Both the position numbers and the translations under genes were made by a program. Below are positions 48,428-64,000 of a stretch of DNA of 64,000 nt, piece by piece. Source of the stretch: an uncultured Solibacteraceae bacterium (GTDB taxonomy: Bacteria > Acidobacteriota > Terriglobia > Bryobacterales > Bryobacteraceae); contig CAYWHA010000015.1 in the NCBI GenBank assembly GCA_964457555.1, forward strand, positions 7,834 to 71,833, read 5' to 3'. Positions within the stretch are counted from its first letter, which is position 1. Every line of letters starts with the position of its first letter. Under the pieces are notes generated by a model that was not told the DNA's origin, did no database searches, and was given only the letters and a program-made list of their open reading frames with translations.

Positions 48428-48445
<18 letters not shown>

Positions 48446-51211
48446 CCTCCGCGAGCTCCTGTTCAACGGCGCCGGGTATCCAATTAAACAGAACTGGTCG
48501 AGCGCAAACAACACCACCGACTCCACCCCGCTCGCCAGCGCCAAGCCTCTCTCTTTCAACCAAGGCGTCGTGTAATCGCTGATTCCCACCAGGTGGCTGC
48601 TCTGCGCCGGCGGGAACCCAAACTGCCCCGGCAATGCAATCGAGCCACGCACCTCGTCCAAATCGCGGTCGCCCGTGAAAGTGAAGTTTTCGGTTTTCAG
48701 GCAGGTCAGCGCCGCGGCGGTCCAAGCCGCGGTCGGATAGTTGACCAGCTTATTCAATGGCGTGTCGTTCGTATCCACCGGGTACAGCGATTCGAAGCGC
48801 GCGTTGGGGTATACGGCCTGCACGAAAGCCATGATCGCATTGGTGAATGCGCCGATCAGCGTGGGCAGGAACGCGCATTCATCCGGGAAGTCCGTGGGCG
48901 GCGCGTTTTGGCTCGGAACGATCCCCATCGGCCGTCCGTATGCCGTCTGAAACGCGCTCTTGGTATACGCGTCGTAGAATGGCATGCCCGCCGCCGATGC
49001 GTTGTACCACCACTGGACTTCCCCGAATTGCAGGTACGGAACCAGACCCGCGGCGCTCATGAGGTTTGCCATATCCAGGTAGACCTGTTGCCAGAACGCC
49101 GTGCTGGCCGGCGAGAAATTGGTCTGAAGCGATGGCGTATTGAGCAGCGCCGCCGTGCCGTCCGGGTAGCATTGTGCGATCCCCGTCGCTGGTTGCGGGT
49201 CGCCATCCTGAAGCTCCATGGAAAACGCCGCCGCCACGTCGATTCCGTACCCCTTCAGCGCCGCGAAGTAGCTCGAGTGCCAGTCACGCGCCGCCCGGTT
49301 GATGCGCGGCGTCGCCGTCAGGTCGGTGCGCCACCCCGCCGCCCACGCCATCGTCGAGAGGTCCCCGTCTACGCCCCCGGCCAGCGGCCCGCTCGCCACT
49401 GCCGTCAGGTGCTGGCTGCCGCCCGTATCCGGGACGACGGTCATCCCGTTTCCAGCCGTCCCCATGGTGCGCGATCGGATGGTCAACACCGCCCCCGCCG
49501 CGCTCGCCTGCACCGCGGTGGCGCCGGCGTTAACCGCGAGCGCCAGCGCGTTGGCCACGCTCGCCGCCGTGTCCGCCATCAAGCTCATGTGTTGAAACAG
49601 CGCTCCACCGACGTTGACCCCGGTGTACAGGCCGAAATCCGGCGTACCCGCGAGCGTCACGGTAGCCGTAGCGTACTGCTGGCCGGGACACGCCAGTTCG
49701 TAAAACCACATCGCGCCGGCATAATGGTTCGCCCGCCCTTGGAAGCCGAGCTTGTCGATCAGCCAGGCGGTGCGCTCCGGTGCAAGGCAAATCGAGTGAT
49801 ACGTGTCCCAGTCCGTCGCCAGCGTCGTGCGCGGGGTGCTGGCGATGGTCGGCAGGTTCGCCGTCGGGTAGGCGATCTCGAAAAAGTCGAAATAAAAGAC
49901 GCCGATTCCGGTCTGCGCGGCCGTCACGGTATGCTGACCCGCGTTGAGATCGGCCACCTTGATCCGGACCAGCAAGTCCTCCACGTCGTCGAACGCCAGA
50001 TTCGCCGCGCTGGTCGCGCCGTCAATGGTAATGGAAATCGGCGCGCCGGCCCCGCCGCCGTTGTTGAACATGCGCGTTCCCAGGAACAGCGTGTGGCCTC
50101 CCGCCGCCGTGTAGGTGCACGACACGGACGATCCTGGCGTCTGCGTGGATCGAATCGACCCGCCCGAGTAGTTGCCCGTCACCGCCTCGTCCCACGCGCC
50201 CGAATAGACCACCAGGTTCGAAGAGTCTTCAGCGCGCCAGCTTCCAGGGCCCGCCACCTGATACGTAAGATTCGCTCCGGCCACCGTCCAGTTTGAGACC
50301 GTCACCTGGAATTCCGTTCGCGCGAAGTTGCCCGGCAGTTGATTGGGGGCCCAAGTCCACCTCATCATCCGTACCGAATTCGTCGGCACCTGGACCAGCG
50401 TCGTGAAAGCCGGCTCCACGTATCCCTGCAGATTGCCGAAATTAAGAGCAACATGCCACAGCGCCGTCGACGTTCCCCCGCTCATCGTCTGCGAGACCGG
50501 CTGCCAGATTTCGGTCTGCGCGCCGCTCGCGTTGCCGTAAACCCCCACACGGTTTCCGTTGGCGCCGGCTGCGGCCTTGTACTGCAGCGTAATCTGCGCG
50601 CCCGATGCCGTGGCCGTCATGCCGGTTGCGGCGGTGTTCGCGGCGATCGCGTTCGCCAGCAGTGTGGCCACGCCCTCCAGCGTGTCGTTGTAGTACATCA
50701 TGTGGGTCGCGTGCTGGCTCGATGGATCCACGCCGTCCGCCGCCGCCCAGGCCAGCTCCACGTAATCGTTGGCCGTTACCGCCCCCGTGAGTTCGAAAAT
50801 CGCCTGCGCCGGCGTCGGCGCCGCGCTCCCCGTCGCGGGCGTCGCGTTCGCAGCCAGCGGCACCTTGTACTCCAGCTCGACGCCGTCCGATCCCGTCGCC
50901 CAGATCCGCAGGTACGGCCAGTCTACCGTCGGCCACAGCGTGCAGTCCATCGCCATGCAATTCTGACGCGCCTCATCGTAGGAGAGCTGCAGGCCGCTCA
51001 GGTCGCCGTCCGGCAGGCAGCGCAGCGCCGGGTGTTCGAAAACGTTGTCGCGGCGCCACTCCACCACCGCCCAATCGAATTGCTGGCGAAACGACCCCGA
51101 TACCGTGAACCCGGTCGCGCTGGTCGCGCTCAAGGCCGCGGCCGCGCTCGGTTGATAGAAGTAGCACTGCAGGTCCCGGTTGGGTTGCAGCTTGGTGAGT
51201 TGTTCCGCCAT
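48428..51211 (-). CDS. Large distal tail protein (candidate fibre/receptor-binding or glycan-binding protein), no family recognised
   Basis: 927-aa ORF starting 7 nt after the stop of the host-specificity-like gene. It is the last gene of the module. Ala/Thr/Gly-rich beta-type composition, with a C-terminal part that looks enzyme-like (YLQFGEVQWWYNA...). Confidence 0.6.
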
Positions 51212-51218
51212 GTTGGTC

Positions 51219-54200
51219 TCACATCCGGATTAGTACGGTCAGATCGGCCCCCGGATACGTTTGCCCCACCGAGAGTATCGCTAGACTAACTTGCGACCCG
51301 GCTGCCAGCGGCGCCAGGGTATTGCCCGCCACGCTATTGGACACCAAAGTCGAGGTCCCGAAAGTCAGCGGACAGTATAGGTTCCCGTTGACGTTCAACT
51401 GAAGTTGTATCGGCGCATCGGCCGCAGTACCCAGCACCGCATAAATCTCGCGAACCGCGTGCGAGGCATCCATCACCAGGGCTGGAGCCGCGTATTGGTC
51501 CACAGCCAGAAAGCCATCCACCTGAATCGTGTACTGTCCGCCGGAGGTTGTGCGCAGTCCCAAATCGGTGGTGTGGGTCAGGGCAATGCTGCCCATTGGG
51601 CTGCTTCCCTTATTGTTGGTCACGACTAGCTCGGCGCTTGCCACGCGTACATCCGGCAGGATTACCGGGAAGCTCCAACTCCCACTGTAAGGACTTCCGA
51701 AAAACTCGGGTGGAAACGCCGCGATCGCGCTCGTGCTTGCCAAATGGTAAACCGGCTCCGGCCCCGCCGTGTGCGCGGTTGCCGGGCTTCCATCGCATCC
51801 TCGCGTCACCTGATAAGTGGCGCCGCCGTTGAGCGCGGCTGTCACGCACATGACTTCCTGGTCGATCTGCAAATAGCTGCCCTTCTGCCCCGGCCCCGGC
51901 AGGCTGAGGTTGATCGTGGTGTCCGCCACTCCCACCGCGTTCGCCAACGTGATTCCCGGCGTGCCCACCAGTTCGTTCCAGTAGTACAGCGTCAGCGTGG
52001 CTGAGGATATCGTGCGCGTGTTCGTCAGGTTGGGGAATGCCACGCCGCTCAACGCCACGGTTCCGCCCTGCGCGCCGTTCCCCAGCCCGAAGAGCGGCTG
52101 CGGCGGAATGGCGGCGTCCCCAAGCCCGCCAATCTGCCAGCGCGTGACCGTCGAAATACCCGGGTCGCATTCCACGTTGTTCACGTTCGCGGCGCGCCCC
52201 GTAATCTGCGCCACCTCGCCCAACCAGTTCGGAATCGCGAACTGCGCCGTCGCGCTGGTGGTCGTCGCGCCGGGATTCCATCCGCTCACCGCCGCCACGA
52301 AGTAGCTGGTGGCATCCGGCTCCACCACCCACGCCGGCGATACCGTTAATGTGGTCGCTGTGTTCGATCCGATCGTCGCTTCCTGTCCCGCCCCGGTCCC
52401 CCGCGTGATCCGCGCCGTCATGCCGCGATACGCATTGACCGTCATGTTGAGCGTTCCGTTGCCCACCGTGTTGGCGGAGTACAGGGTCGCCGCGATCTCC
52501 GGCAGCGCTTCCATGCGCCAGTAGAAATTCGCGTGATCGAAATTGGGGTCCGGCGGCGCGATGTTCAGCGGCGGAAGCCCCGGGTCGGTAAACTGCCCCG
52601 CCATCGCCTGACTGCTCGCAATCCGGTACAATGCCGACGGAGACGCGCCGCGATAGACGTTGAAAGCCGCCGTATTGAGATCGAAGCTCAGCCCCGTCAG
52701 CGTAACGGCGCTTCCACTGCTGGCGATCCCCGCCGTCACCAGGAACGATAGCGCGCTTTCATTCCCCGCCGAATCGAGCGCCGAAACCGCGTAGTACAGA
52801 ACCTGGCCGCTCGCCAGCGTTCCACCCGGCGCCACAGCCGCCGACAAGCTCACAAAGGGGATGCCCGGACCTGCCTCCGCGCTCGTGGCTGGTGGAACGT
52901 AGCTCACCGTGACGGTCACCTGGACCGAGCCGTCGCTGGTGACCGCGTCGGTCTCGGTCACCCCGAACTCAAGATTCCCATTCGCATCCACCACGCTGCC
53001 GATCAGCGGCCGCGGCACACCCATGCCCGCGTCGCTCTGCCGCCGCCCTCCCGTTGCCGAAGTGGGCTGCCCGTTGCTGTCTGCGTACCAGGCGTCGTCG
53101 TGAATCTGCGCCGTGATCGTCGTTACGCGATGGTTGATCCCCGGAGCGATTTTCAAAATACGGAACGGCTGCCGGGTGAATCCTTCTTTGAGGTACGTGA
53201 CCGTGATAATGTCGCCCGGCCGCACTCCGAACGATTTCACGCTCGTTTGGAATTCGATGTACGTGTTGCCCAGCACCGATTTGTTCAGGTTCAGTTGCAG
53301 GATACGCCCTGCCTGGTCGTTGTTCGGAAGCCCTATCGCGTTCAGGCTCGCCGTAATCTCTTGCCCGCAAAGCGTTACATCGTCCGCATCGGCTACCGTG
53401 TAGCTATCTTGCTGGTAATCGTTCAGCGAGTCCTGGAACTCCACGCTGAGACTGTTCGGAGTGTCCGCCATGCTGCGCGAATATACCCGCACGCTCGGTG
53501 CGCCGCTCGGCAGCCGCAGGATTCCGGTAACGCCCGTGCTGCCGTCTCCAAACTCGTAATTCGGCCATCCGCCGTTGAGCGGCTCCGTACTGTTCGACCA
53601 CGCCGGCTGCGTGGGCTGCTCGTTCGCGATGGTGTCCTCCACGCGAAGCTGCAGCAACCCCGCGCTGCTGTAAGTCAGTAGTAGCCGCGCCGTAATCCGC
53701 ACTCCGCGCGCCACGTCGCCCGCGCTCTTTCTCGTCTTCAGCGCCATGTTGCACTGGAACTTGGCGAGCGATATCGCATTGCCGTAGATGTCCACCGCAT
53801 CGATCTGCTGGTCGCAGTCCGCCGCCGCCGCCGCGAAGCTCGCAATGTCAATCTCCGCCGCGCTCCAGCCGAGCCGCCGCAAGATGTCCAGCAGAATCCA
53901 CGCCGGATTGTTGCTGAATTGCGCGCCCGTCTGCACGCCATTCGCGTCGTAAATCGCAATTGTCAGTCCCTGCGCCAGCACCTTGATTCTGGGCAGCGTC
54001 GTCCCGTTGTTGATCTGGTTTGGAACCACCACCGAAAGGTACGCCATGCTTCCGTACGGATCGCCGCCCGGAAAGTTCGCGTCGAACTGCCCCGTGCGTT
54101 GCCCCAGGCTCTGCACGTTGTACCACCCCGTAGCCGTCATGTTGGCGCCGGGGATGCCCAGCGGAATCTGCACCTCGTTAACCAGGACGATCAGCGGCGC

Positions 54201-55079
54201 CTGCATCTCGCCGATCCCCAACAGGACTTGCATCCTCGTCAGATTGCCGTCGTTGCGCGCAAAAACGATGGGGGGCGCGTACCACGCCGTCCCGTACACC
54301 ATCGGCACGAAATCGTTGTACAACGCCGTGTTCAGGCTGATCGCCGAGGCCTGCACGTTCCCCCCGGAGGGCCGCACCAGGATCGACGCCGGCACGAACT
54401 CCAGGCCCCCGAAATTTCCCCACATCCCTCGCGCCTGGCAGTCGCTCCGCGTGTATCCGCAGCTTGTGTACGCAACGCCGCCGTCCAGGTTCCCCGCGCC
54501 GCCCGCAATGTCCGCCGAGTACCCGCAGCGGTAGTACGAAGAGTATTGCCCGTTGCTTCCTCCGTCGATCGCTTCCGTGCGCTGTTCCGCGGTCGCCGGA
54601 AAATCCCACGGGCACGTCCGCTCGATCCGCACCTGCGGCAGCAGAACCCTCTGCAAGCTCATCCGGTTGATCGCCGTCAGCCGGATCGTCGCCTCCAGAA
54701 TCTCGTCCGGCGGATTGCAGATTCCCTGGAACAGCGCCGCGGTCGCGCTGTCAGCCGTCTGAGTCGCCAGATTGTAAATCAGAAAACTCACCGTTAGCCG
54801 CGCGCCCTTAAAACCGATGGATTGCTCCATCTCCGAAAAGTACGAATCCGCGTTCGCTAGCACAATCGAGATCTGCGATAGCCCGTCCACCCCTTGCGCC
54901 GAGGCCGGCTGCATTTCGAAAGCGCTGTGTTCGAGCACCCGCGCCGCATAGGCCTTGCCATTCACGGTGATTCCGTGCGTGCACCAGCTTTCCGTATGCC
55001 CGTTCGCCAGCGTGCAATCGAACAGTAGAAGCGGCGCATCCGTGATCGCCTGCTCCGTCAGACTATAGATGGTTGACAT
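51219..55079 (-). CDS. Tail tip/host-specificity protein: DUF2163 plus BR0599-like hub N-terminus fused to a lambda-J/RcGTA-g15-like central region and FN3-like repeats
   Basis: N-terminus LLLFDCTLANGHTESWCTHGITVNGKAYAARV plus a Cys cluster (RTCPWDF, YYRCGY, YTSCGYTRSDCQARG). The centre, NNPAWILLDILRRLGWSAAEIDIASFAAAAADCD...KFQCNMAL, is typical of Phage-tail_3/J-like proteins. 1286 aa. Confidence 0.65.
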   Translation of the reverse strand: MSTIYSLTEQAITDAPLLLFDCTLANGHTESWCTHGITVNGKAYAARVLEHSAFEMQPASAQGVDGLSQISIVLANADSYFSEMEQSIGFKGARLTVSFLIYNLATQTADSATAALFQGICNPPDEILEATIRLTAINRMSLQRVLLPQVRIERTCPWDFPATAEQRTEAIDGGSNGQYSSYYRCGYSADIAGGAGNLDGGVAYTSCGYTRSDCQARGMWGNFGGLEFVPASILVRPSGGNVQASAISLNTALYNDFVPMVYGTAWYAPPIVFARNDGNLTRMQVLLGIGEMQAPLIVLVNEVQIPLGIPGANMTATGWYNVQSLGQRTGQFDANFPGGDPYGSMAYLSVVVPNQINNGTTLPRIKVLAQGLTIAIYDANGVQTGAQFSNNPAWILLDILRRLGWSAAEIDIASFAAAAADCDQQIDAVDIYGNAISLAKFQCNMALKTRKSAGDVARGVRITARLLLTYSSAGLLQLRVEDTIANEQPTQPAWSNSTEPLNGGWPNYEFGDGSTGVTGILRLPSGAPSVRVYSRSMADTPNSLSVEFQDSLNDYQQDSYTVADADDVTLCGQEITASLNAIGLPNNDQAGRILQLNLNKSVLGNTYIEFQTSVKSFGVRPGDIITVTYLKEGFTRQPFRILKIAPGINHRVTTITAQIHDDAWYADSNGQPTSATGGRRQSDAGMGVPRPLIGSVVDANGNLEFGVTETDAVTSDGSVQVTVTVSYVPPATSAEAGPGIPFVSLSAAVAPGGTLASGQVLYYAVSALDSAGNESALSFLVTAGIASSGSAVTLTGLSFDLNTAAFNVYRGASPSALYRIASSQAMAGQFTDPGLPPLNIAPPDPNFDHANFYWRMEALPEIAATLYSANTVGNGTLNMTVNAYRGMTARITRGTGAGQEATIGSNTATTLTVSPAWVVEPDATSYFVAAVSGWNPGATTTSATAQFAIPNWLGEVAQITGRAANVNNVECDPGISTVTRWQIGGLGDAAIPPQPLFGLGNGAQGGTVALSGVAFPNLTNTRTISSATLTLYYWNELVGTPGITLANAVGVADTTINLSLPGPGQKGSYLQIDQEVMCVTAALNGGATYQVTRGCDGSPATAHTAGPEPVYHLASTSAIAAFPPEFFGSPYSGSWSFPVILPDVRVASAELVVTNNKGSSPMGSIALTHTTDLGLRTTSGGQYTIQVDGFLAVDQYAAPALVMDASHAVREIYAVLGTAADAPIQLQLNVNGNLYCPLTFGTSTLVSNSVAGNTLAPLAAGSQVSLAILSVGQTYPGADLTVLIRM

Positions 55080-55845
55080 AGATAATGTTCACCGTGCACG
55101 AATGGCGGTTTACGCCCGTGGTCGTGACTGCCAGTTGGTCGTCCCTCAGACGCGCGTTCTGATAGACTCCGCCGCTGGTGCTCGCCTGGTACACGGACGC
55201 CCCCGCCTGCGGTTCCGCTTGCATCCCGTATACCTGCACCTGAGCGGCGGCCGGAATTTGTAGCCCGAAACAAATCTCGGCCGCCGCCGCGTCTCCGCTC
55301 CCAACGGAGACGAACCTGTTCCATTGCGTTTGAACTGCTTGGCTCGCTTGGCCGCTCCCCAACAGCATCGTGACCGTCGTAGGCGCGGCTGCCCGCAGAT
55401 AGACGCTCAGGCAGTATTTGTATCCGCCCGGCGCCGTGAGCGTTTGCGAGATCGTCTGCGGCGCCGCGCCTCCATTCGTCAAACTCCACGCTCCCGTTCC
55501 GCCGGTCGGGTCCGCAATCCCGCTGGTGATCGAAAGCTGGGGATCGCGCGCCCAGGCCGCCTGCCCCGGCTCCTCGCTCCATGCCAGCAAATTCGCCCCC
55601 GGGTCCAGGAACGTGAACCCGTTCAGCGTCCCTTGCGCCGACGCGAAGAACTGCTCCAGCGCCGTTAGCTCCGCGTCCGACAGACCCGTGTAGCTCAACG
55701 CCCAATCCGTCGTCGATCCCGCCGCGTCCGCCAGCTTGATCGAGCTTCCGTCCAACGCGGCGTTGATCGCCGTGCGCGCGCGCCGTTCGGTCCGGATCGG
55801 AAACTGGCTCAGCGCGCCCGTTCCAAGTTGTGGATACGTCAGCAT
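55063..55845 (-). CDS. DUF2460-like distal tail protein paralog B (260 aa)
   Basis: MLTYPQLGTGALSQFP...LSDAELTALEQFFASAQGTLNGFTFLDP matches the FP...FF..RxG...F.F.DP pattern of TIGR02217/DUF2460 (RcGTA g12-type). It carries an extra C-terminal beta-rich domain and overlaps its neighbours by 7 and 17 nt. Confidence 0.55.
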   Translation of the reverse strand: MLTYPQLGTGALSQFPIRTERRARTAINAALDGSSIKLADAAGSTTDWALSYTGLSDAELTALEQFFASAQGTLNGFTFLDPGANLLAWSEEPGQAAWARDPQLSITSGIADPTGGTGAWSLTNGGAAPQTISQTLTAPGGYKYCLSVYLRAAAPTTVTMLLGSGQASQAVQTQWNRFVSVGSGDAAAAEICFGLQIPAAAQVQVYGMQAEPQAGASVYQASTSGGVYQNARLRDDQLAVTTTGVNRHSCTVNIIYVNHL

Positions 55846-56207
55846 GACGATCCTCGGTTCTCCATCACCCTCAATACCGTTGCGCCGTTCATCTCTCCGC
55901 TGGCCGTGGTTGGCAGCGTGTCCGTTTCCAGGCTGCAGCTTGGATAAACCGTACCGTCCCAGGGATCGGTGAATGCGAAGTTCCCAAACGCTCCCTGGTT
56001 GTCCTCGAAGAACTGCTCGATGGCCGCCATTTCGCCTTCGTCCAGTTGGCTAAGCGGGATCTCCCATCCGTGCAGCGGGCCGGCGCAGTCCTGGTAGCGT
56101 TGCTCCGTGCCGTCCAGGAAGCGTAACGCCTGGTTCTGATAGCGCACTTTCCGCATCGCCGGATACTGCATCGCGGCATTGGTTTTCAATTTGGGGAAGG
56201 TCGCCAT
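55839..56207 (-). CDS. DUF2460-like distal tail protein paralog A (122 aa)
   Basis: MATFPKLKTNAAMQYP...LDEGEMAAIEQFFEDNQGAFGNFAFTDP aligns by eye with the N-terminal 85 aa of 55063..55845. Confidence 0.55.
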   Translation of the reverse strand: MATFPKLKTNAAMQYPAMRKVRYQNQALRFLDGTEQRYQDCAGPLHGWEIPLSQLDEGEMAAIEQFFEDNQGAFGNFAFTDPWDGTVYPSCSLETDTLPTTASGEMNGATVLRVMENRGSSC

Positions 56208-56209
56208 GG

Positions 56210-56875
56210 CTATAGGTCGTTGACCACATCGTTGATTGAATTGGAATTGAGCATTGCGTTCTTTACCGCCGCTGCGATGTCCGCGCTATGGTCCATGAAC
56301 CATCGCGCATCGAGTGTCTGGCCGTTCGCCGTGGTTTGCGCCGGCCCCGCCACCGCTCCCGCCCCGCTCGAAACGCTGCCGGCCGACCCTCCCGCGCCCG
56401 TCGAAGATCCGCCCAGCGCCCTTGCCGTTCCCATTTGGTCGTAGCTGACGTTGCTCAACGTCCCGCCGCTATCGGCCGCCTGAAAATCGAGTGACGGCGG
56501 CATGACGTACTTAGTCAGTGGCGCGGGTGACTCGGATCCCCCGCCGCTGAATAACCCGATCAACCCCCCAATCAACGGAATCAGACCGAGGCCGCTCTCC
56601 AGAACGGTCTTCGCCACTGAACCCGCCGTCGCTCCGCCCCCGCTGTTGCTTGTCTTCGACATAGCCTCGGCTTCGGTCCTTGCCGGCCGCGGCAGCGTCG
56701 ATGGCGCCACCATGTCTGCTCCGGCCTCGCCTGCGCCGCTCGATTGCGATGCCGTCTCCGCCAGCAAGGCCGCCAGTTCTTCGGTCCCGGCCTTCGCCGC
56801 CAACGCATCGGTCCCTTCGCCGCCCGCAGCCTCTATGAAACTATCGAGTAACTTCTCTTGTATGGTCTTGGCCAT
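56210..56875 (-). CDS. Short tape-measure-like protein (221 aa, Gly/Ala/Ser-rich with a central hydrophobic segment)
   Basis: Sits in the tape-measure position directly after the G/GT genes. Helical N-terminus, hydrophobic GLGLIPLIGGLIGLFSGGG, low-complexity remainder. The assignment rests on synteny only. Confidence 0.45.
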   Translation of the reverse strand: MAKTIQEKLLDSFIEAAGGEGTDALAAKAGTEELAALLAETASQSSGAGEAGADMVAPSTLPRPARTEAEAMSKTSNSGGGATAGSVAKTVLESGLGLIPLIGGLIGLFSGGGSESPAPLTKYVMPPSLDFQAADSGGTLSNVSYDQMGTARALGGSSTGAGGSAGSVSSGAGAVAGPAQTTANGQTLDARWFMDHSADIAAAVKNAMLNSNSINDVVNDL

Positions 56876-57556
56876 TTCTTGTTTCCGTCGAAAGCTCGTT
56901 TTCCAGGATCGCGAACGCCTCCACTTGCCGGGCGCTCAACTCCGCGAAGCCCGTCCCTCCGACCCGCCGCCGCACCAGAAACTCCTCCACCAGCGTCAGG
57001 CTGTCTCCCGTGACATACGATTTTGGACAGGATGTGAGCGAGGCGCCCCTCCTCGCCCACACCAGCGGCGCGCCCGTCCCCTCCGGGTGCGCCATCCATC
57101 CGCATCGCCGCTTCTGTTCCAGACCGGATCTCCGGCAGGCGTCGCACTTCCAACCGGCCTGGTTGGAAAACTGAAAGTGGAAGGCGACAATTAGTTTTTT
57201 CGTTCCGCCTCGTCTAGCCCCGTCTCCGCCCGAACCGCGGCCAGCGCTTCTCGAAACAGATCCTCCGGCCCGGCGCCCGCCAGCGACTCCGGCGTGGCTG
57301 CCGCTCCGTCCACCTCCAAACCCACAACCTCCCGTAAACCCCAAGTCACGTAAAGCCGGTCGATCTCCTTCTGCAGCAGCGCCGCATCCATTTTTTCGCC
57401 CGCGCCGCCCCCCGCCTCCAGAAACTCCATCCGCCGCATCAGTTCGCGCACCTGCCGCATCAGATCCACCCGCCGCGCAAACGACATCTTCGCCACCGTG
57501 TACCGCACCCCCGCCGCAACCGCCGATTCCACCATCCTCACGCTCTCGTAAGTCAT
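56841..57556 (-). CDS. Tail assembly chaperone GT-like fusion made by -1 programmed frameshift (about 238 aa)
   Basis: The -1 frame is open from the heptamer (57194-57200) to the stop at 56841 and has protein-like sequence (LIVAFHFQFSNQAGWKCDACRR...). It has no start codon for its first 33 codons. Span length is 716 nt, which equals 3n-1 as expected for a -1 shift. Confidence 0.5.
57191..57556 (-). CDS. Tail assembly chaperone, G-like (121 aa)
   Basis: Small acidic helical protein between the tube candidate and the tape-measure-like gene. It ends ...EAERKN-TAA, with the slippery heptamer in its last codons. Confidence 0.6.
   Translation of the reverse strand: MTYESVRMVESAVAAGVRYTVAKMSFARRVDLMRQVRELMRRMEFLEAGGGAGEKMDAALLQKEIDRLYVTWGLREVVGLEVDGAAATPESLAGAGPEDLFREALAAVRAETGLDEAERKN
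57194..57200 (-). promoter_or_regulatory. -1 ribosomal frameshift slippery heptamer A_AAA_AAC
   Basis: Minus-strand zero frame reads GAA CGA AAA AAC TAA. This gives X_XXY_YYZ = A_AAA_AAC in the correct phase, immediately before the stop codon. Confidence 0.55.
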
Positions 57557-57569
57557 AGCCCCATCCCTC

Positions 57570-57698
57570 TTGACGCGGAGACGCGGACGCGAAGCGCCAC
57601 AAATCCACCCTGCATTCCCGAACCTCTTATAGAGGTTTTCTCCGCGTCCCCGCGTCTCCGCGTCAAAGCCTTTCTCTGCTTACTCTCCGCGTCAAAGC
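57570..57698 (-). repeat. Inverted plus direct repeat complex built on TTGACGCGGAG, between the tube and chaperone genes
   Basis: Left arm TTGACGCGGAGACGCGGACGCG (57570-57591) pairs with right arm CGCGTCCCCGCGTCTCCGCGTCAA (57643-57666). A central 7-bp hairpin AACCTCT-TAT-AGAGGTT sits at 57621-57637. TCTCCGCGTCAAAGC is repeated at 57655-57669 and 57684-57698. Confidence 0.85.
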
Positions 57699-57703
57699 TT
57701 GCC

Positions 57704-58912
57704 CTACCCGAACGCCACCGTGATCTCGTTGTCCACCGTCCCCTGCGCCCGCGCCCCCCGGAACTTCCACTGCAGCCGGTTCTGCCCGTCCTCGAATTCC
57801 GGAACCTCCGGGATCACGCTGTTCATGTTGACCCCCATCATCAGCCCTTGCGCTTGCCCCAACTGGAACATCACGCTGATGGGCGATTGCTGCCGCGCCG
57901 CCTGGTAAAGCCCGATGGTCGCGCTGTCGTCCATGCTGTAGAGTTCGAAAGCCGCCGTCACCGTGCGCCCCCCGGGCATGATCGCCTGCGGCAGGTTCGT
58001 CCCGAATTCCTTGGCCCGCGCGGCCAACCCGTTCTTCAGCGTTACCGTCCCGCCGGTGATCGTGAAGAACTGCGAGGGCGCGCCCAGCCACGCCTCGCCC
58101 ATGTTTCCGGGCACAATCGAGTAGTCGAACGCGCCCAGCGCCGGCTCCGCCGGGAAGTTCGTCAATGTCCCTTCCCCGCTGCTGAAGCTGCCACTGTCCA
58201 GTAAATCCTGCGCGATCCCGCTGAAGCGGAATTCCTGATAATCCCCGTTCAACAGGATGTCCATCTGGTCGATAGCCCCGCCGCACAGCAGTCTCTGCAC
58301 CGCCGTCGCCGGCGACCAGTAGTCGTAGACGCTCACACTCGGCAGTTCCGTCGCCGGTACGTAAGTCACCGTCGGCGCCACCGCCGTGCCCGCCCCCGGC
58401 AGAGCCGTAAACGGCGCGTTCAATTGCACCGCGGTCGCACTCGCAATCGCCGTCACGAACCGGATCTCGCCGCCGCAACTGACCGCTTGCCCCGCCGTCA
58501 GACCGTGCGCCGCCTGGAACACCAGGCTCCCGGCTGCCGTGCTCGAAGCCGCCGTTCCGCCCGCGAATTCCAGCGGCGTGCCGCCCAGCGCCGCCTGGAA
58601 CAGCGGTCCGTACGCCGGCCCCGGCAGCGTATCGGGCGAGGGCGCGTTGCCCGAAGGCCCGGCCGCCGCCTGCTGCCAGCTCGTCAGAAAGGTTCGAAGC
58701 TCGAAGCTGGTCCGCCTCCTGCCGCCCGCCGGCAGTCCCGGAAATGTCCGGCTGCCGGTCTTGTCCTTCCGCGTGGTAACTTCCAGTTGCTGCTCCACCG
58801 CCAGCTTCAAGGCGGGAATCCGGTTCGCCGAGGTGACCGCCGATACGTTGCCGTAGGCGCTCTCCAATGCCGTGTAGAATCGGTTTGCGTTAGACGAAAT
58901 GTACGAGGACAT
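57704..58912 (-). CDS. Major tail (tube) protein candidate, 402 aa
   Basis: Located after the connector genes and before the chaperones. Beta-rich, Ala/Gly/Thr-rich sequence. Its start lies 2 nt after the upstream stop. Assignment by synteny. Confidence 0.5.
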   Translation of the reverse strand: MSSYISSNANRFYTALESAYGNVSAVTSANRIPALKLAVEQQLEVTTRKDKTGSRTFPGLPAGGRRRTSFELRTFLTSWQQAAAGPSGNAPSPDTLPGPAYGPLFQAALGGTPLEFAGGTAASSTAAGSLVFQAAHGLTAGQAVSCGGEIRFVTAIASATAVQLNAPFTALPGAGTAVAPTVTYVPATELPSVSVYDYWSPATAVQRLLCGGAIDQMDILLNGDYQEFRFSGIAQDLLDSGSFSSGEGTLTNFPAEPALGAFDYSIVPGNMGEAWLGAPSQFFTITGGTVTLKNGLAARAKEFGTNLPQAIMPGGRTVTAAFELYSMDDSATIGLYQAARQQSPISVMFQLGQAQGLMMGVNMNSVIPEVPEFEDGQNRLQWKFRGARAQGTVDNEITVAFG

Positions 58913-58913
58913 G

Positions 58914-59411
58914 TTAGTTGGTGCTCACTCCTATCTCGAGGGCGATCTTCGCCGTCTGTATGAAATTCCTGCCGCCATGTTTCACCGCCGCGAACGATAC
59001 CTCGTATCCGCCTGCGTAAAACATCCCGTTGCCCCAATCCCCCCGGCTCGCGCTCAACGTCTCCGTCACCGCGTCCGTATAGAGTTCCAGGGCGTCTTGC
59101 AGACCCTCCAGCCGGTCGTGCGAGTGCCGCACCTCCACCGTCATCTGGGCCGAGCCGGAGAAGCTCCGGGACTTCTCCTTCAAGGCGTTCACCAACTTCT
59201 CGCAATACACGTTGACCGCCGGATAGGTGACCGTTTCGCTGCGCTCCATCAGGTCCGGCGCCACGTTTTGCGCGCGCACCTGCGCCGTGTTCAGCGCCGC
59301 CGGCGCGCTGTCCGCCGCCGAAAGCGCCGCCAGCGTCGCATTGGCCCCCGCCGGCGCGACGATCAGTTGAATAATCCGGTCGCTGATCGCGCTCCCTATC
59401 TTCTGTGTCAT
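58914..59411 (-). CDS. Head-tail joining/tail terminator-like small structural protein (165 aa)
   Basis: ORF 58914..59588 trimmed to ATG 59411, which overlaps the upstream stop as TAATG. Assignment by position between the coat and tube genes. Confidence 0.45.
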   Translation of the reverse strand: MTQKIGSAISDRIIQLIVAPAGANATLAALSAADSAPAALNTAQVRAQNVAPDLMERSETVTYPAVNVYCEKLVNALKEKSRSFSGSAQMTVEVRHSHDRLEGLQDALELYTDAVTETLSASRGDWGNGMFYAGGYEVSFAAVKHGGRNFIQTAKIALEIGVSTN

Positions 59412-60181
59412 TAGCCCCTCCGCAGCACTCTTGGAACTGGCTTGATGTAGTTGGGAGCTTGCCCTTGTCCCGCCCGCCGGCCGGTCGTCGCCAGCGTCCC
59501 GGGTTGGGTCCAGGTCTGTGCGGTTCCGATCGGCGTCCCATTCTGCCGGAACATCGAATCGGGGCCGCCGCCCACATACACGTTCCATCCCTTCGCGTTA
59601 TTCGGTGGATCCACCGGTTGTACCAGCAGCGTGCTGGCGACCGTCGAGACAGTAGCCGGCAAGGCGCTCGCCCCCTCCTCGCCGGCCTGGTTGGTCCACG
59701 CCATCGTCGCGTAGTAGGTCGCGTCCGGTAGCGCGGTCGGCGCGCCCACTACCGCCGTCACGGTGGGCATCGCCGCTCTGGGGATCGGATCGAGCGCCAC
59801 TCCCGCCCCAATTTGAACCAGCTTGTCGTAAGCCCAGCTCGCCATCGAATGGAATTGGTCCCGCTTGCCCGCATACCGGTCGTTCAACTGGCTGTTGTAT
59901 GCGTCGGCGTACACCATCTCCAGCGCGCGGTAGCTATGCCAGAGCCGCAGCGCCGGCGTCACCACCACGCGGCTGACGCTCGGCTGCGGCGAAAGCCCGA
60001 ACTGGTCCGGATAACTCGTTCCCGTCAGCAGTACTTCGAGCCCCAGCGCCACTTCTTCCTGCGCCAGGGCCAGCTTTTGCGTCACGTCGATACTCTCGGC
60101 ATTGGCTACATCCAGCAGTTGCGAATCCTGCGCCGAAAGATCGTCCATGCTCGATACGAGACCGTCCGTGAACAGAGCCAT
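59411..60181 (-). CDS. Head-tail adaptor-like protein with a C-terminal beta-sandwich-like domain (256 aa)
   Basis: N-terminal helical region (LSAQDSQLLDVANAESIDVTQKLALAQEEVALGLEVLL) resembles gp6-type connector proteins. Assignment by position, low certainty. Confidence 0.45.
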   Translation of the reverse strand: MALFTDGLVSSMDDLSAQDSQLLDVANAESIDVTQKLALAQEEVALGLEVLLTGTSYPDQFGLSPQPSVSRVVVTPALRLWHSYRALEMVYADAYNSQLNDRYAGKRDQFHSMASWAYDKLVQIGAGVALDPIPRAAMPTVTAVVGAPTALPDATYYATMAWTNQAGEEGASALPATVSTVASTLLVQPVDPPNNAKGWNVYVGGGPDSMFRQNGTPIGTAQTWTQPGTLATTGRRAGQGQAPNYIKPVPRVLRRG

Positions 60182-60185
60182 GTCC

Positions 60186-60518
60186 TTACGCCGAGTCCTT
60201 CAGGGCGTCCGCGACCCCCTTCAACTTGTTGAGCTCGGCCGTCGTCAGCACCGAGAACTGCACCCGCGCCGCCGCCGCTGCCTGATCGGCTGCCTGTTTC
60301 GCCACCGCCACCGACGCGCGGAATGCAGTCGCGGCCGCGCTAGTGGCCAGACTGGCTTCCCCTTCCACAATCATCTTCGCCGCGATGTCGCGCGTGACCT
60401 CCGTCAGCACTCCCGCCTTGCCGCCCTCGGACGTCTCCAAACTCACGATCACCGGATAAGGATCCGCGATGTTCGCTTCCGTCGTTCGTATCTTCTGGTA
60501 ATAACTTGTCAGATCCAT
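60186..60518 (-). CDS. Small structural/hypothetical protein (110 aa)
   Basis: ORF 60186..60566 trimmed to ATG 60518 with GGAGAG (60526-60531) 7 nt upstream. The longer TTG-start version would translate through the hairpin repeat. Confidence 0.5.
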   Translation of the reverse strand: MDLTSYYQKIRTTEANIADPYPVIVSLETSEGGKAGVLTEVTRDIAAKMIVEGEASLATSAAATAFRASVAVAKQAADQAAAAARVQFSVLTTAELNKLKGVADALKDSA

Positions 60519-60540
60519 CTTCTTTCTCTCCTTTTTTAGT

Positions 60541-60646
60541 CGAGGGGACAGACGAATCTGTCCCAAGGCGCCGCCGCTGCGCGAGGGGACAGACGAATCT
60601 GTCCCAAGGCGCCGCTGTTGCGCCGCGTGGACAGATCCGTCTGTCC
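60541..60646 (-). repeat. Two 34-bp direct repeats, each carrying an 8-bp-stem hairpin, plus a third related hairpin
   Basis: CGAGGGGACAGACGAATCTGTCCCAAGGCGCCGC occurs at 60541-60574 and 60582-60615. Hairpins lie at 60545-60564 and 60586-60605 (mRNA sense GGGACAGA-UUCG-UCUGUCCC) and at 60629-60646 (GGACAGA-N4-TCTGTCC). Confidence 0.9.
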
Positions 60647-60700
60647 CCGGTCTGCCCCGGTCTGCCCCGGTCTGCCCCGGTCTGTCCCCGGTCTGCCCCC
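60645..60700 (-). repeat. Tandem 10-bp repeat CCCCGGTCTG x5 (sense strand GGGGCAGACC), abutting the coat gene stop
   Basis: Copies at 60645-54, 60655-64, 60665-74 and 60675-84, then a 1-nt insertion, then 60686-95, followed by CCCCC (60696-60700). This gives six G4+ tracts on the coding strand. Confidence 0.95.
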
Positions 60701-61620
60701 TACGTATTCACCTGCACGCCCGAAGTGTTTCTCAACACCGCGCACCCGTACAGCACGTCCACCGTGAACTGCTGAGCCAGCGTATCCGGCTGGTAGCTCA
60801 TCACCACGCGCATCCCGAAGTTGCCCAGCTCCGCGTACTCCGCGATCGCGCCGGTCCCCGGCAGTGGCTGCGGCAGCCGTCGGATCACCAGGCCAAGCGC
60901 GTCCTTCGTGAACGCCATGTTGTGGGTCGTCACCACCGCCGGCGGCGTGCCCGTCTGTTGCACAAACTGCGAGCGGAACACGTAGAAGTCCTTGTACTTC
61001 CCAACCGTGCCGTCGATCAGCGCGTTCAAGCCCGCGGCCCCCGCCGTCTGGAACTCCTCGAACAGCGGAATCTGCCGCCATGCCGAGTAAGTCGCGGCGT
61101 TGACTACGATGTACTTCCTCTCGCTCGGTGGCACCATCGCTTGGAACAGCGTGGTTTCCGCCGCGTCGATGGTCGCTTCCGTGATCGCCGTGCCCGCCGT
61201 CCCCACCACCGGGTTCGAGTTGAAGCCCGCGTACAGGCTCAGCAGGTCGGTTTCGATCTTTTGCGCGATCGCCGCCACCGATGGCTGCATGTACAGCTTC
61301 AGCAGGTCCGGCACTGCCAGCACCCGGATTACGTCCGGTATCTGGAACGTCGCTTCCGCGTGCGTATTCAGCACGATCGCCGCGTTGTTCAGAGGCGGGT
61401 TCTGCGTCAGTACCGCCCCGCCGTTGTTCAGAATGTTGTTCGCCACCATCGTTGGCGGTATCGGGATGTTGACCGTGTCACCGGCATTCGCCAGCACCGG
61501 CTCGTAGTCGCGATTCACAAGGTTCCCCATCACGAGGTTCCCCACCAGTACCGGCAAAGCGTCCGCCGCCACCAGCTTCACAATCGCGCTTGCGACGTTT
61601 GTTGAGGTAATTGCTGCCAT
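60700..61620 (-). CDS. Major capsid protein, P22-coat-like (HK97 fold) family
   Basis: 306 aa. The pattern NLVNRDYEPVLANAGDTVNIPIP..., the size, and the position after a scaffold-like gene fit the P22 coat protein family as recalled. AGGAGAA is upstream of the ATG. Confidence 0.7.
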   Translation of the reverse strand: MAAITSTNVASAIVKLVAADALPVLVGNLVMGNLVNRDYEPVLANAGDTVNIPIPPTMVANNILNNGGAVLTQNPPLNNAAIVLNTHAEATFQIPDVIRVLAVPDLLKLYMQPSVAAIAQKIETDLLSLYAGFNSNPVVGTAGTAITEATIDAAETTLFQAMVPPSERKYIVVNAATYSAWRQIPLFEEFQTAGAAGLNALIDGTVGKYKDFYVFRSQFVQQTGTPPAVVTTHNMAFTKDALGLVIRRLPQPLPGTGAIAEYAELGNFGMRVVMSYQPDTLAQQFTVDVLYGCAVLRNTSGVQVNT

Positions 61621-61675
61621 TCGTTCTCCTGTCTTTTCTTTCTGCCGGGCCTTTCGGGCCCGTACTGTTTCGTTT

Positions 61676-62272
61676 TCACAGCCCCCGTAGGGTCTGCGAC
61701 GCCACGCGCACGATTTCCTCTCGTACCCGCCGCATCTCTTCCGCGCTCATGCCTGGCCGGATTTGGTCGAGAGACACCGTCTCCCGCCCCTCTGCCGGCG
61801 CCTTCAGGGTCGCCGTCATTCCGGTCCCCCCCGCGATCCGAGCCGGTAGAAACTCCGGGTTCTCCGCGACGAAGGCCGACAGATATTCCTTCATACTCAT
61901 CTGTCCGCTTTCCCCGCGAGCTACCAGCCGCCCGTCTTCCGTCCGCTCGATTTCGTCCTTGACCGCCTTGAACGCAAGGTCGATCTTAGCTACTCCCAGC
62001 CGGTGCAGCTCCGCTCGTACCATCGAGCCGCGCTCCGCTTCCTCCGCCAGCTTCCGGCTGTGCTTGTTCTCCGCCACCAGTTCGTTCAGCCTGCGCTCCA
62101 GTTGTTCCCGCCGCTTCCGCTCGTCCTCCAGCTCCGCCTTGTGGGCCGGTTCGCTCTTGGCCTGCTCGTTGCTGGCGTATTCCTGAATTGCTTGCCGCAC
62201 GATAGCCTGCACGTCTATTCCTTCCATAACCCTCCTGTCAGTGGGGCGGGCCTCCTGGCCTGCCTTCTTCAA
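61676..62272 (-). CDS. Scaffolding protein candidate
   Basis: Highly charged coiled-coil region (AHKAELEDERKRREQLERRLNELVAENKHSRKLAEEAERG), lying between the portal and coat genes. Start is uncertain: TTG 62272 or ATG 62227. Confidence 0.55.
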   Translation of the reverse strand: MKKAGQEARPTDRRVMEGIDVQAIVRQAIQEYASNEQAKSEPAHKAELEDERKRREQLERRLNELVAENKHSRKLAEEAERGSMVRAELHRLGVAKIDLAFKAVKDEIERTEDGRLVARGESGQMSMKEYLSAFVAENPEFLPARIAGGTGMTATLKAPAEGRETVSLDQIRPGMSAEEMRRVREEIVRVASQTLRGL

Positions 62273-62304
62273 CTAATCCTTTCCCGGATAGCGATCCATC
62301 CGAA

Positions 62305-62374
62305 CCGCGAACCTCCGTTCCGAGCCGCGAACGTCCGTTCCGAGCCGCGAACGTCCGTTCCGAGCCGCGAACGT
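62305..62374 (-). repeat. Tandem 20-bp repeat CCGCGAACGTCCGTTCCGAG x3.5 between the portal and scaffold genes
   Basis: Copies at 62305-24 (one mismatch), 62325-44 and 62345-64, plus a half copy at 62365-74. Confidence 0.95.
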
Positions 62375-62409
62375 AAGAGAGCGGTTCTTACTGTCTCCCC
62401 GGTCTGCCC

Positions 62410-63792
62410 CTACTCCCCGTACTTCATCCCGTCAATCTCTTCCGCCACCTGGTTCTTAACTTCCTGCCGCGCGTCGCACAAGTACTTGAACGCCAAATTC
62501 TTGAACACCTGCTTCTTCAACGTCTCCGACCCGATCCCCATATCCAGCAGCTTCTTTGCGTCGTCCAACTCCCCGCTGTAATCGTCGATATCGAATTCGT
62601 CCAGGCCCGATACGTCAATCGACACTCCGTCCTGCCGCGCCGCCGCAATCGCCCGCAGCACCTGCTTCATGCTTTCCTTCACCGTGTCTCCATACGCCCG
62701 CAGCACCTCCTGCGTCACGCTGAAGTCCCTCTGCTTGCTGATGCCGGAGATCCGCAAGTCCCCTCCGCTCGGCGTCCCGGCTTGGTTCATCAGGTAACAC
62801 ACCCGGTAGATTTCGTCCTTGAGCTGCACCAGGTTGTCCGCCGCAATCTGATAAACCTTCCCCTCCGGCTCCGTCCACCCGAACCGGTCCTGCGGCCCCA
62901 GTTGGATGTAGTACGACTCCCCTACAATCTGGTTCCATTCCCGCTCCGAATAAACCACCGGAGTCGCGAACAGCCCCATCGTCAGCGCCCACGCCAGCGC
63001 GTTCGATTTATTGAAATGCTCCAGTTGCAGCAGCGCCGCCTTGTTCGTCAGCCACAGCCCGTCCGATACCTGCATGCGGAACAAGGGCACGCGCCGCAAC
63101 GCCGCCAGCCCGTGCTGCCCTTCGTCCACTAACTCCACCGCGCTTGTCTCACCCGCCTTCCGGTAGATCTGGAAGTTCTCGCGGTCGTAGTAAATCCACC
63201 GCGTTTCCCTCCCCCATCGCGCGTCCGTCACCTTCGATTGCTGCAGGCACGTCGTCCGGATTACCGCCCATTCCAGGCTTCCCGTCTCGTCGTGGTTCCA
63301 GTTGATGACCTCCTCCGGACTGTAGTCCACCAGGTACGCCCGCGACCGCCCCGATGCGTCCTCTTCCGCCCGCGTCATCGCCGCCCCGTTCGCCCGCGGA
63401 AAATCCACCACCGTGTACGAGCAGCCGTAGATCATCGTCTGCACGAACCTCTGCCGGAAAAACTCACTTAGGTTCGTGTCCTTCAAATCGCAATTCGCCG
63501 ACAGCACGCTGAAGTAGTCCTTCGCCGCCGCGTCGTTTCCTTCAATCGCCACCGCCGGCGCCCGCCGGATCAGCGTCGCCGCGTACCAGTCCACGATCGA
63601 CCCGATGTAGTTCTCGTAAAATACCCGGTTCAGCCGCTCCTGGTAAATCTCGCCCGGCTCCTTGTGCCGCCGCACCAGGTAATCCGTCGCGTTTGCGCGC
63701 AGCCGTTCGCCGCCCGCGTAAAGGTCCCTGTACTGCTTCCACATCGCCTTGCGCGCGATGTATTCCGGATGTTCGCGATTGATGTTTTGCAT
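62410..63792 (-). CDS. Portal protein (DUF4055-like portal family)
   Basis: ORF 62410..63963 trimmed to ATG 63792, 7 nt after the terminase stop. 460 aa. N-terminus WKQYRDLYAGGERLRANATDYL...YQERLNRVFYENYIGSIVDWY resembles DUF4055 portals. Position fits. Confidence 0.65.
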   Translation of the reverse strand: MQNINREHPEYIARKAMWKQYRDLYAGGERLRANATDYLVRRHKEPGEIYQERLNRVFYENYIGSIVDWYAATLIRRAPAVAIEGNDAAAKDYFSVLSANCDLKDTNLSEFFRQRFVQTMIYGCSYTVVDFPRANGAAMTRAEEDASGRSRAYLVDYSPEEVINWNHDETGSLEWAVIRTTCLQQSKVTDARWGRETRWIYYDRENFQIYRKAGETSAVELVDEGQHGLAALRRVPLFRMQVSDGLWLTNKAALLQLEHFNKSNALAWALTMGLFATPVVYSEREWNQIVGESYYIQLGPQDRFGWTEPEGKVYQIAADNLVQLKDEIYRVCYLMNQAGTPSGGDLRISGISKQRDFSVTQEVLRAYGDTVKESMKQVLRAIAAARQDGVSIDVSGLDEFDIDDYSGELDDAKKLLDMGIGSETLKKQVFKNLAFKYLCDARQEVKNQVAEEIDGMKYGE

Positions 63793-63799
63793 TTGGTTC

Positions 63800-64000
63800 T
63801 CAGTTGAGCAGCCTGACTGTCCGCTCCCCGATGCTTTGCCTTCTGTTGTATTGGTCCCATACCAGATACCCCAGCGCGTCCGATAAGTGCGTCCGCAGCC
63901 GGTCCCGGTCTTTGTCGATGATGCATGAGTCTGTCTTGTATGACACCTGCTCGAAGTCCGCAATCAGTTCCTTGCACTTGCCATCTACTAACAGCCTGAT
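63800..64000 (-). CDS. Terminase large subunit, C-terminal fragment (5' part beyond window)
   Basis: Not in the ORF track (no start in window). Manual translation gives IRLLVDGKCKELIADFEQVSYKTDSCIIDKDRDRLRTHLSDALGYLVWDQYNRRQSIGERTVRLLN-stop. The ...L..D.E......IDK.....TH.SDA.GY pattern is typical of terminase nuclease C-termini. Confidence 0.55.
   Translation of the reverse strand: MRLLVDGKCKELIADFEQVSYKTDSCIIDKDRDRLRTHLSDALGYLVWDQYNRRQSIGERTVRLLN

Follow-up and report, generated by a model that had tools for sequence, protein, structure and literature searches.

A G-tract array behind a phage-like coat gene is probably an ordinary repeat of a "selfish" hairpin family and not a coat gene signal

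The window analyzed here is a stretch of 64,000 nucleotides from an uncultured Solibacteraceae bacterium, corresponding to C15:7834-71833 in a metagenome-assembled genome (MAG) of 255 contigs (63% GC, 98.9% complete, and 7.1% contaminated). Within a phage-like gene cluster in this window, six G-rich units follow the stop codon of the major head (coat) protein gene, and the original prediction presented them as a candidate G-quadruplex (G4) at the 3' end of that gene. The array is best read as an ordinary repeat of a "selfish" hairpin family and not a coat gene signal. Most probably, it arose when the G-rich end module of a dispersed palindrome stuttered in a slippage-like manner, the palindrome being similar to REPINs (inverted doublets of repetitive extragenic palindromes, or REPs) or to terminal inverted repeats (TIRs), and its G4 potential is a by-product. 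This reading is carried by the anatomy of the element, its genome-wide family, its link to a transposase gene, and the fast turnover of its tail.

The array is joined to a composite hairpin element

Read on the minus strand from 60702 to 60639, the sequence is TAG GGGGCAGACC GGGGACAGACC GGGGCAGACC GGGGCAGACC GGGGCAGACC GGGGACAGAC. The features at and around the coat gene stop codon are as follows.

60700..61620, minus strand: major head (coat) protein gene, 306 aa, P22-coat-like, stop codon TAG at 60702-60700
60639..60699, minus strand: G-tract array of six units, G4Hunter mean 1.23, with a G4 in the G4-aware minimum free energy (MFE) structure
60699-60690, minus strand: first array unit, GGGGCAGACC
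60689-60679, minus strand: second array unit, GGGGACAGACC
60678-60649, minus strand: third to fifth array units, three copies of GGGGCAGACC
60648-60639, minus strand: sixth array unit, GGGGACAGAC
60545-60646, minus strand: composite palindromic element joined to the array (hairpin A, linker, and two copies of hairpin B)
60629..60646, minus strand: hairpin A, GGACAGA-CGGA-TCTGTCC, whose left arm is the last array unit, GGGGACAGAC
60606..60628, minus strand: linker ACGCGGCGCAACAGCGGCGCCTT (ACGCGGCGCAA..GGCGCCTT), conserved in the family and with a small GC stem of its own
60586..60605, minus strand: hairpin B copy 1, GGGACAGA-TTCG-TCTGTCCC, with the same stem as hairpin A
60545..60585, minus strand: second 41-nt unit reported by Tandem Repeats Finder, made of a partial linker and hairpin B copy 2 (60545-60564)
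60186..60518, minus strand: next gene of the cluster, 110 aa, without a family match, ATG at 60518 and GGAG at 60531-60528

The array comprises six runs of at least four G separated by loops of 6 to 7 nt, with the first run beginning at the G of the coat stop codon, and both the coordinates and the description in the original prediction are correct. Using Tandem Repeats Finder, 60639-60699 was resolved into a repeat of period 10 (5.9 copies, 94% matches, score 104) or alternatively of period 20 (3.0 copies, score 115). The array does not stand by itself, as its sixth unit doubles as the left arm of hairpin A. The hairpin repeat to which it is joined has a period of 41 (2.3 copies, score 155), and a REPIN-like long imperfect palindrome of roughly 60 nt is made up of hairpin A, the linker, and hairpin B. 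The 211-nt RNA spanning this region folds at -104.9 kcal/mol (z = -5.46), with the left arm of hairpin A paired to the right arm of hairpin B.

The 10-mer unit is not enriched in the window (8 matches with at most one mismatch versus 7.3 expected), and its 40 exact copies in the genome are about what base composition would predict; the departure from chance lies in the clustering of the 10-mer in tandem, not in its abundance. Across the 6.55-Mb genome, the 14-mer GGGGCAGACCGGGG was found only in the coat array and at one site after the portal gene stop codon. The 24-mer (GGGGCAGACC)2GGGG was present in only seven other species genomes of the GTDB collection, as two-unit duplications in unrelated GC-rich bacteria, which is uninformative, and had no match in IMG/VR.

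Quadruplex potential of the array and of the genome

Under the classical rule for a putative quadruplex sequence (PQS; four runs of three or more G, with loops of 1 to 7 nt), the array is a canonical intramolecular motif with a G4Hunter score above 1.2 (mean of 1.23, best 25-nt window of 1.6), as had been proposed. In G4-aware ViennaRNA folds of both the RNA and the single-stranded DNA (ssDNA), a G4 of four layers occupies runs one to four. For the array plus element, the predicted energies with and without the G4 term are -106.8 versus -102.7 kcal/mol as RNA and -64.6 versus -51.6 kcal/mol as DNA. Quadruplex formation at the array is plausible in silico and not exceptional for this genome, which contains 551 canonical PQS and 49 loci with at least four runs of four or more G, mostly (GGGGCC[A/G])n arrays. 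These G4 arrays show no preference for the mRNA-sense strand. G4Hunter regions scoring at least 1.2 number 14,884, and those scoring at least 1.5 number 3,499.

The (GGGGCC[A/G])n arrays, about 45 in all, have four to nine runs of four or more G each (for example, at C27:51394-51454, C1:90333-90456, and C6:72883-73166), and some are paired with an inverted C-rich array to give long hairpins. Arrays of this type also follow the coat and portal stop codons of a relative (L016).

The hairpins belong to a dispersed family

A search of the genome for GGACAGA-N4-TCTGTCC (family A) returned 33 hairpins on 14 contigs in both orientations, with the window's hairpin A lying at C15:68462-68479. As the source is a MAG, such copy numbers are lower bounds. 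Family-A hairpins occur mostly as doublets of hairpin A, linker, and hairpin B, of which there are 12, and in the orientation of the window the other copies are preceded by mostly one or two tail units, such as GGGACAGACCAG (C60), GGCAAGACCAG twice (C26), GGGGGGACAAGACCAG (C46), and GGGTAGACCGG (C4). The six-unit tail in the window is the longest, and hairpin B is duplicated there too. Gene context was taken from a crude codon-usage open reading frame (ORF) caller, which over-extends 5' ends and makes spurious ORFs across (GGGGCC)n arrays; with it, 12 of the 14 family-A loci were placed in short spacers, and at 10 a stop codon is no more than about 50 nt away from the element. The G-rich tail is on the sense strand at some loci and on the antisense strand at others. 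The contigs concerned have a uniform GC content and most also hold a second repeat family, which argues against binning noise. Among 201 sampled genomes of the bacterial family, just four carry the family-A element.

Taken as a signal specific to the coat gene, the array thus fares poorly, being the tail of a dispersed palindromic element. The original prediction had also named what would speak against it, namely, scattering of the array through the genome as a generic repeat. This largely applies, given the dispersed element, the sibling array beside a transposase gene, the 49 G4 arrays, and the lack of sense bias among them.

GTAG was considered as an insertion target, as it precedes the coat and portal copies, but was rejected since the aligned flanks of about 17 other copies show no such rule. 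CGTC, when present in family-A copies, is confined to hairpin B, where it falls in the loop and the stem.

Short-read assembly of a repeat could in principle create such an array or distort its copy number. The fragmentation of the MAG into 255 contigs is in keeping with this, and related elements do break other assemblies, with Ns at the element in L051 and copies at contig ends in C24, C124, and G099. However, at 61 nt the array would fit within a typical read, and the contig around it is 107 kb long. Six independent contigs from metagenomes or IMG/VR also have the same element, with a G-rich tail, at this position, making an artifact very unlikely.

A sibling array flanks a tyrosine transposase gene

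Only one other array in the genome has long loops (at least 5 nt) between its runs of four G. This array, (GGGGCAAACC)x6 at C53:34412, abuts a 240-aa ORF that matches Y1_Tnp (PF01797, E 2.3e-8) and has HVH and WQGRYY motifs in its translation. Against the NCBIfam model of the REP-associated tyrosine transposase (RAYT), NF047646, the ORF scores 48.5 bits, below the 80-bit equivalog cut-off. It is bracketed by inverted 28-nt copies of GGGGCAAACCGGGGACAGACGGGACGTT that are 96% complementary.

L086 (C53), 1102-1129 and 1899-1926: TIR arms flanking the ORF at 1141-1863

In total, PF01797 has seven matches in the genome, six of them over the cut-off. The region C53:33950-35300 (L004, L086) is a TIRtron-like unit, a type described below, with tandem 73-nt units, (GGGGCACAAACC)n, and (GGGGCAAACC)x6 on one side as well as an assembly N-run.

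The junction 20-mer of the window, GGGGCAGACCGGGGACAGAC, differs at one base from the first 20 nt of the C53 repeat (19/20), and a relaxed pattern of this 20-mer was limited to the C53 unit, the window array, and a single copy of family A. Family A and the C53 repeat family are physically fused on C46. The hairpin bodies differ, being GGACAGA-N4-TCTGTCC in the window versus GGGACGTTCCC around the transposase gene, and only the G-rich end module is common to both.

TIRtrons are genes for RAYT-like TIRYT tyrosine transposases flanked by TIRs, several of which share the sequence GGGGWSAS; some seed moderately abundant families of dispersed repeats, and the TIRYT group with the clearest boundaries comes from acidobacteria (Di Nocera, De Gregorio & Rocco 2013, PMC3733652). 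The window element is most precisely comparable to these TIR repeat families. The C53 gene is likewise of the Y1/HUH type and bracketed by 28-nt inverted repeats, and GGGGACAG, which is present in the C53 TIR, the window hairpin A arm, and the second array unit, fits GGGGWSAS. The C53 ends also form a dispersed family of moderate abundance, occurring as singles, dimers, and groups (PMC3733652). The comparison differs in that the window copy has other hairpins than the C53 TIR, so that the link rests on the shared end module, and in that the available part of that paper (PMC3733652) does not mention ends amplified in tandem into arrays with at least four G4 tracts. The commonest array unit, GGGGCAGA, misfits GGGGWSAS at position 5.

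Of 200 other Bryobacteraceae genomes sampled, four have related GGGGAC... hairpins with an array of two or three GGGG[C/A]AAACC units in front. In one genome (G140), the order is (GGGGCAAACC)2-hairpin-(GGCTTGCCCC)2, and as these complementary units flank the hairpin, the tail units behave as repeated extensions of the stem. The spacer hairpins of many relatives (L021, L035, L039, L046, L058, L060, L099, L111, and L115) terminate in ...CCTGCCCCAC, complementary to GTGGGGCAGG. Hairpins of this type, GTGGGGCAGGCG-CTTT-CGCCTGCC, flank a further Y1 transposase gene in inverted orientation on C100 (L090) of the window's own genome, and this unit looks like a REPtron with a GTGG instead of a GTAG tag.

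The presence of a sibling array at a transposase gene raises the question of whether the window array is itself a recognition or processing element at the DNA level for a RAYT/TIRYT-type transposase, serving as a G-tetraplex or as repeated ssDNA binding or cleavage sites, in which case the stutter might be made by the enzyme and not by polymerase slippage. In favor of this, the genome's only two such arrays are at GGGGACAGAC ends and one directly flanks a transposase gene, and similar arrays stand beside the related hairpins of the four other genomes. REP oligonucleotides with two G-tracts each form bimolecular tetraplexes in vitro, and it has been proposed that RAYTs may recognize tetraplexes formed by G-rich 5' REP arms (Charnavets et al. 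2015, PMC4690160). The window element resembles these REPs in its G-rich 5' arm and C-rich 3' arm, in being a transposase-associated palindrome, and in having a predicted quadruplex as an alternative to the hairpin; it differs in that its six tandem tracts allow a predicted intramolecular G4. However, most copies of the family have one or two units and few G-runs, family-A hairpins flank no transposase gene, and neither the sequence nor the length of the tail is conserved. A DNA-level role of this kind is therefore improbable, and a stuttered end module remains the preferred explanation.

The coat spacer in relatives

The coat ORF encodes a P22-type major head protein by profile searches (phrog_283, E 1.1e-38; PF11651 P22_CoatProtein, E 1.6e-14), with portal and scaffold genes upstream and small head-tail genes downstream. 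From its stop codon to the ATG of the next gene, the spacer is 181 nt. No Rfam covariance model matched at E of 1 or below in 56000-64000, no promoter-like hexamers were found in 60100-62500, and neither strand of the coat spacer contains a terminator-like site, as a GC-rich hairpin followed by a U-tract is lacking; downstream of the hairpins there are CTCG... and an A-run, not a U-tract.

At least 496 species genomes of GTDB encode a relative of the coat protein, as do at least 594 contigs of IMG/VR. Among the matches listed, amino acid identity ranged from 75 to 86%, and nearly all of the genome matches were labeled Bryobacterales, Solibacteraceae, or Terriglobia. Each of five genomes checked has one copy. 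In 80 relatives, the spacer that separates the coat gene from the gene after it is 81 nt long at the median, and 95% of these spacers include a stem of 8 bp or more without interruption. Among spacers no longer than 160 nt (n = 68), 85% fold with z below -2 relative to shuffled sequences. The spacer sequences differ widely among relatives, so that what is kept is a strong stem-loop and not a motif, and same-genus genomes have a single plain hairpin in the spacer, without the family-A element. In one of these (G064), the coat spacer reads GGGGCAGACG...CGTCTGCCCC, and the unit might descend from such an older hairpin at the locus; however, no GGGCAGAC-N-GTCTGCCC hairpin was found in the window's own genome, and this derivation is not part of the reading adopted here.

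The closest relatives, six metagenome or IMG/VR contigs and one MAG, fall into two variants (V1 and V2) and carry the element at the same site. The coat gene of a V1 contig (L098) is 94.7% identical in DNA to that of the window, and the next gene is 92.1% identical. The 62-nt hairpin core of V1 and V2 is about 97% identical to the window, while the tail is rearranged, reading GAGGGGAC GGGGACAGACC GGACAC GGGACC GGGGACAGACAC GGGATC in V1 and GAGGGGGAC GGGGGACA GGGGACAGAC GGACATAGGACC in V2. Since the core is kept and the tails are rearranged, the three perfect 10-mers of the window represent a recent, lineage-specific expansion in a hypervariable tail. The original prediction of a slippage-prone site of length variation was therefore sound, in that two close relatives have differently rearranged tails at the same place. 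Conservation of the quadruplex motif did not hold up: V1 has no PQS at loops of up to 7 nt and no G4 in its G4-aware MFE structure, and V2 has no PQS even at loops of up to 12 nt. Readthrough of the stop codon into a coded extension of the coat protein was rejected, because the spacers of the close relatives differ by 30 and 40 nt and no frame is kept.

G-rich tandem arrays are fused to the coat stop codon in other lineages as well, namely, (GGGGCCA)n in L016 and (GGGATCA)n in L062. Heptamer arrays of (GGAGTCA/GAAGTCA)n directly follow coat or portal stop codons in L052, L060, L082, and L104/L116, and in L052 an inverted complementary array after the heptamer array gives a long hairpin.

Tandem repeats that vary in length may act as contingency (phase variation) loci or as iterons, and here the copy number, or a protein bound to units phased at 10 bp, could switch the coat gene or the downstream gene. 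The perfect tandem units, the period of 10 bp, equal to one helical turn, and the different lengths among relatives are what such a locus would show. The array, however, lies wholly beyond a stop codon, with the next start some 120 nt further on, and is thus in no reading frame, and the repeat lies neither inside an ORF nor between promoter hexamers, none of which were found in 60100-62500. The tails of relatives vary in sequence as well as by 30 and 40 nt, which leaves no conserved unit to which a protein could bind. A switch of this kind is exceedingly unlikely.

Weighing a selected quadruplex against a repeat end

Several observations count against reading the array as a repeat end with incidental G4 potential. 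The tail is G-rich in all three close lineages (G4Hunter means of 1.23 to 1.32), and the PQS in 148 distinct spacers of relatives are 9 on the sense strand versus 0 on the antisense strand. The predicted four-layer G4 leaves the hairpins undisturbed, with the long hairpin intact in the G4-aware fold. Beside the stems, alignment of the flanks of 19 copies shows no fixed GTAG or CGTC tag, family-A hairpins themselves bracket no transposase gene, and the MAG carries 7.1% contamination. Finally, no spacer hairpin is followed by a U-tract, and a role at the mRNA 3' end is something that we infer.

Some of these points would favor a functional RNA G4 at the 3' end of the coat mRNA that, with the hairpins, would block 3' exonucleases, pause RNA polymerase, or slow ribosome release and so adjust how much coat protein is made relative to the downstream proteins. 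The canonical PQS is on the sense strand, a four-layer G4 is favored by about 4 to 9 kcal/mol in the G4-aware folds, the tails of V1 and V2 are still G-rich, and the arrays of L016 and L062 directly follow the coat stop codon. The 9:0 sense bias also compares with 5 sense and 13 antisense PQS in generic co-oriented spacers of the window's own genome, which have a GC skew of +0.007. However, the sense strand of the whole 15.6-kb cluster (48428-64000, minus strand) has a GC skew of +0.139 and an AT skew of +0.119, with GC skew reaching +0.24 in the portal and scaffold genes and +0.29 at third codon positions of the coat gene, against +0.011 in coding DNA genome-wide. As the skew extends over the cluster, the 9:0 bias is not specific to the coat spacer, and a spacer-specific sense-strand G4 bias was rejected because the cluster-wide composition matches it. 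A selected G4 would be expected to be conserved at the orthologous site, whereas the canonical motif is lost in the nearest relatives, the V1 fold has no G4, and a PQS is present in just 9 of the 148 distinct spacers, leaving about 94% without one. The family-A element is also found in both orientations behind other genes, and the G4Hunter score is unremarkable in a genome with 3,499 regions at or above 1.5. A functional RNA G4 is accordingly unlikely, and the quadruplex does not look like a selected signal; the potential to form one exists because a GGGG-containing arm is repeated.

On the preferred reading of the array as a stuttered repeat end, the terminal module GGGG[A]CAGAC[C] of a noncoding dispersed hairpin repeat would have been duplicated in tandem, most likely through replication slippage or unequal pairing. 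The repeat would be of the REP/REPIN or TIR kind that accompanies RAYT-like (IS200-type, Y1/HUH) tyrosine transposase genes. Its units are ordered as tail unit or units, hairpin A, conserved linker, and hairpin B, and it occupies the coat spacer of this Bryobacterales genome's conserved phage-like cluster. What counts for expression is probably the strong stem-loop of the element, which would protect the coat mRNA either as a 3' barrier of the REP type or as a partial attenuator. The hairpins would then stand in for the stem-loop found at the same spot in 95% of the 80 relatives, where unrelated hairpins may serve.

Other repeats in the cluster

Two further repeat features lie between the portal and scaffold genes, at a spacer that in most relatives is only about 8 to 15 nt.

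62391..62412, minus strand: two-unit solo copy fused to the portal stop codon, TAG GGGCAGACC GGGGAGACAG, sharing the 14-mer with the coat array
62299..62395, minus strand: different dispersed repeat, AACCGCTCTCTTACGTTCGCGGCTCGG, whose 20-nt end is stuttered 3.8 times, with 162 genomic copies

The portal-stop copy has a partial counterpart, TAG GGGGCAGAC, in relative V1. The 20-bp tandem array that separates the portal and scaffold genes, iteron-like at first sight, is the end of a very abundant dispersed repeat that has stuttered; the repeat reads AACCGCTCTCT[T/G]ACGTTCGCGGCTCGG and has no Rfam match, and its core 13-mer is present in 162 copies on 63 contigs. An inverted pair of this repeat adjoins another Y1 transposase gene on C56 (L087 1295-1400). 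The shared 14-mer, the hairpins, and the 20-bp array of the window are all explained by host repeat families colonizing the spacers of the cluster.

Known systems and implications

The REP, REPIN, and bacterial interspersed mosaic element (BIME) families that accompany RAYTs in Escherichia coli and Pseudomonas are short extragenic palindromes whose inverted doublets give long hairpins and which form modular, clustered arrays. The window family is similarly a short, imperfect, dispersed extragenic palindrome with inverted doublets that fold into long structures, and it lies right behind stop codons in either orientation, where effects on mRNA 3' stability or attenuation are plausible. It differs in having no unpaired GTAG or CGTC tag, in numbering tens and not hundreds of copies, in having no cognate RAYT flanked by its hairpins, and in being present in only 4 of the 201 sampled family genomes.

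Pneumococcal BOX elements are noncoding intergenic modules in which one subunit varies in copy number between strains. The window element is likewise modular with a variable-copy subunit, although its sequence and phylum are different and no homology is implied. Nor is homology implied by the likeness of cyanobacterial short tandemly repeated repetitive (STRR) heptamers to the (GGGGCC[A/G])n arrays and to the heptamer arrays after the coat and portal genes of relatives. The G4 regulatory motifs of bacteria, such as those of Deinococcus, that of Paracoccus nasT, and the Neisseria pilE G4, are conserved in position and functionally tested. The window motif is likewise canonical and in a GC-rich bacterium but is unconserved even where the flanking genes are about 95% identical.

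The finding is a caution, as a textbook G4 motif at a coat stop codon is the unstable end of a host-wide selfish repeat. Since the motif here is a repeat end, G4 matches in GC-rich genomes need a genome-wide repeat census before a regulatory reading is given to them. The G-tract stutters linked to the repeat ends of tyrosine transposases also offer a natural substrate for the idea that RAYTs recognize tetraplexes. It is conceivable, if a long shot, that such stutters at GGGGWSAS-type ends of RAYT/TIRYT palindromes are systematic, with an ssDNA quadruplex recognized by the Y1 transposase or stalling replication and so promoting mobility and array expansion, while the G4 and hairpin, where transcribed in the sense orientation as behind the coat gene, would double as an mRNA 3' protector.

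The head-tail cluster at 48428-64000 is extraordinarily widespread and conserved, and its spacers are colonized by host repeat families. The presence of host repeats in the spacers fits a long-resident, vertically inherited element, either domesticated or similar to a gene transfer agent (GTA), and not a recent prophage.

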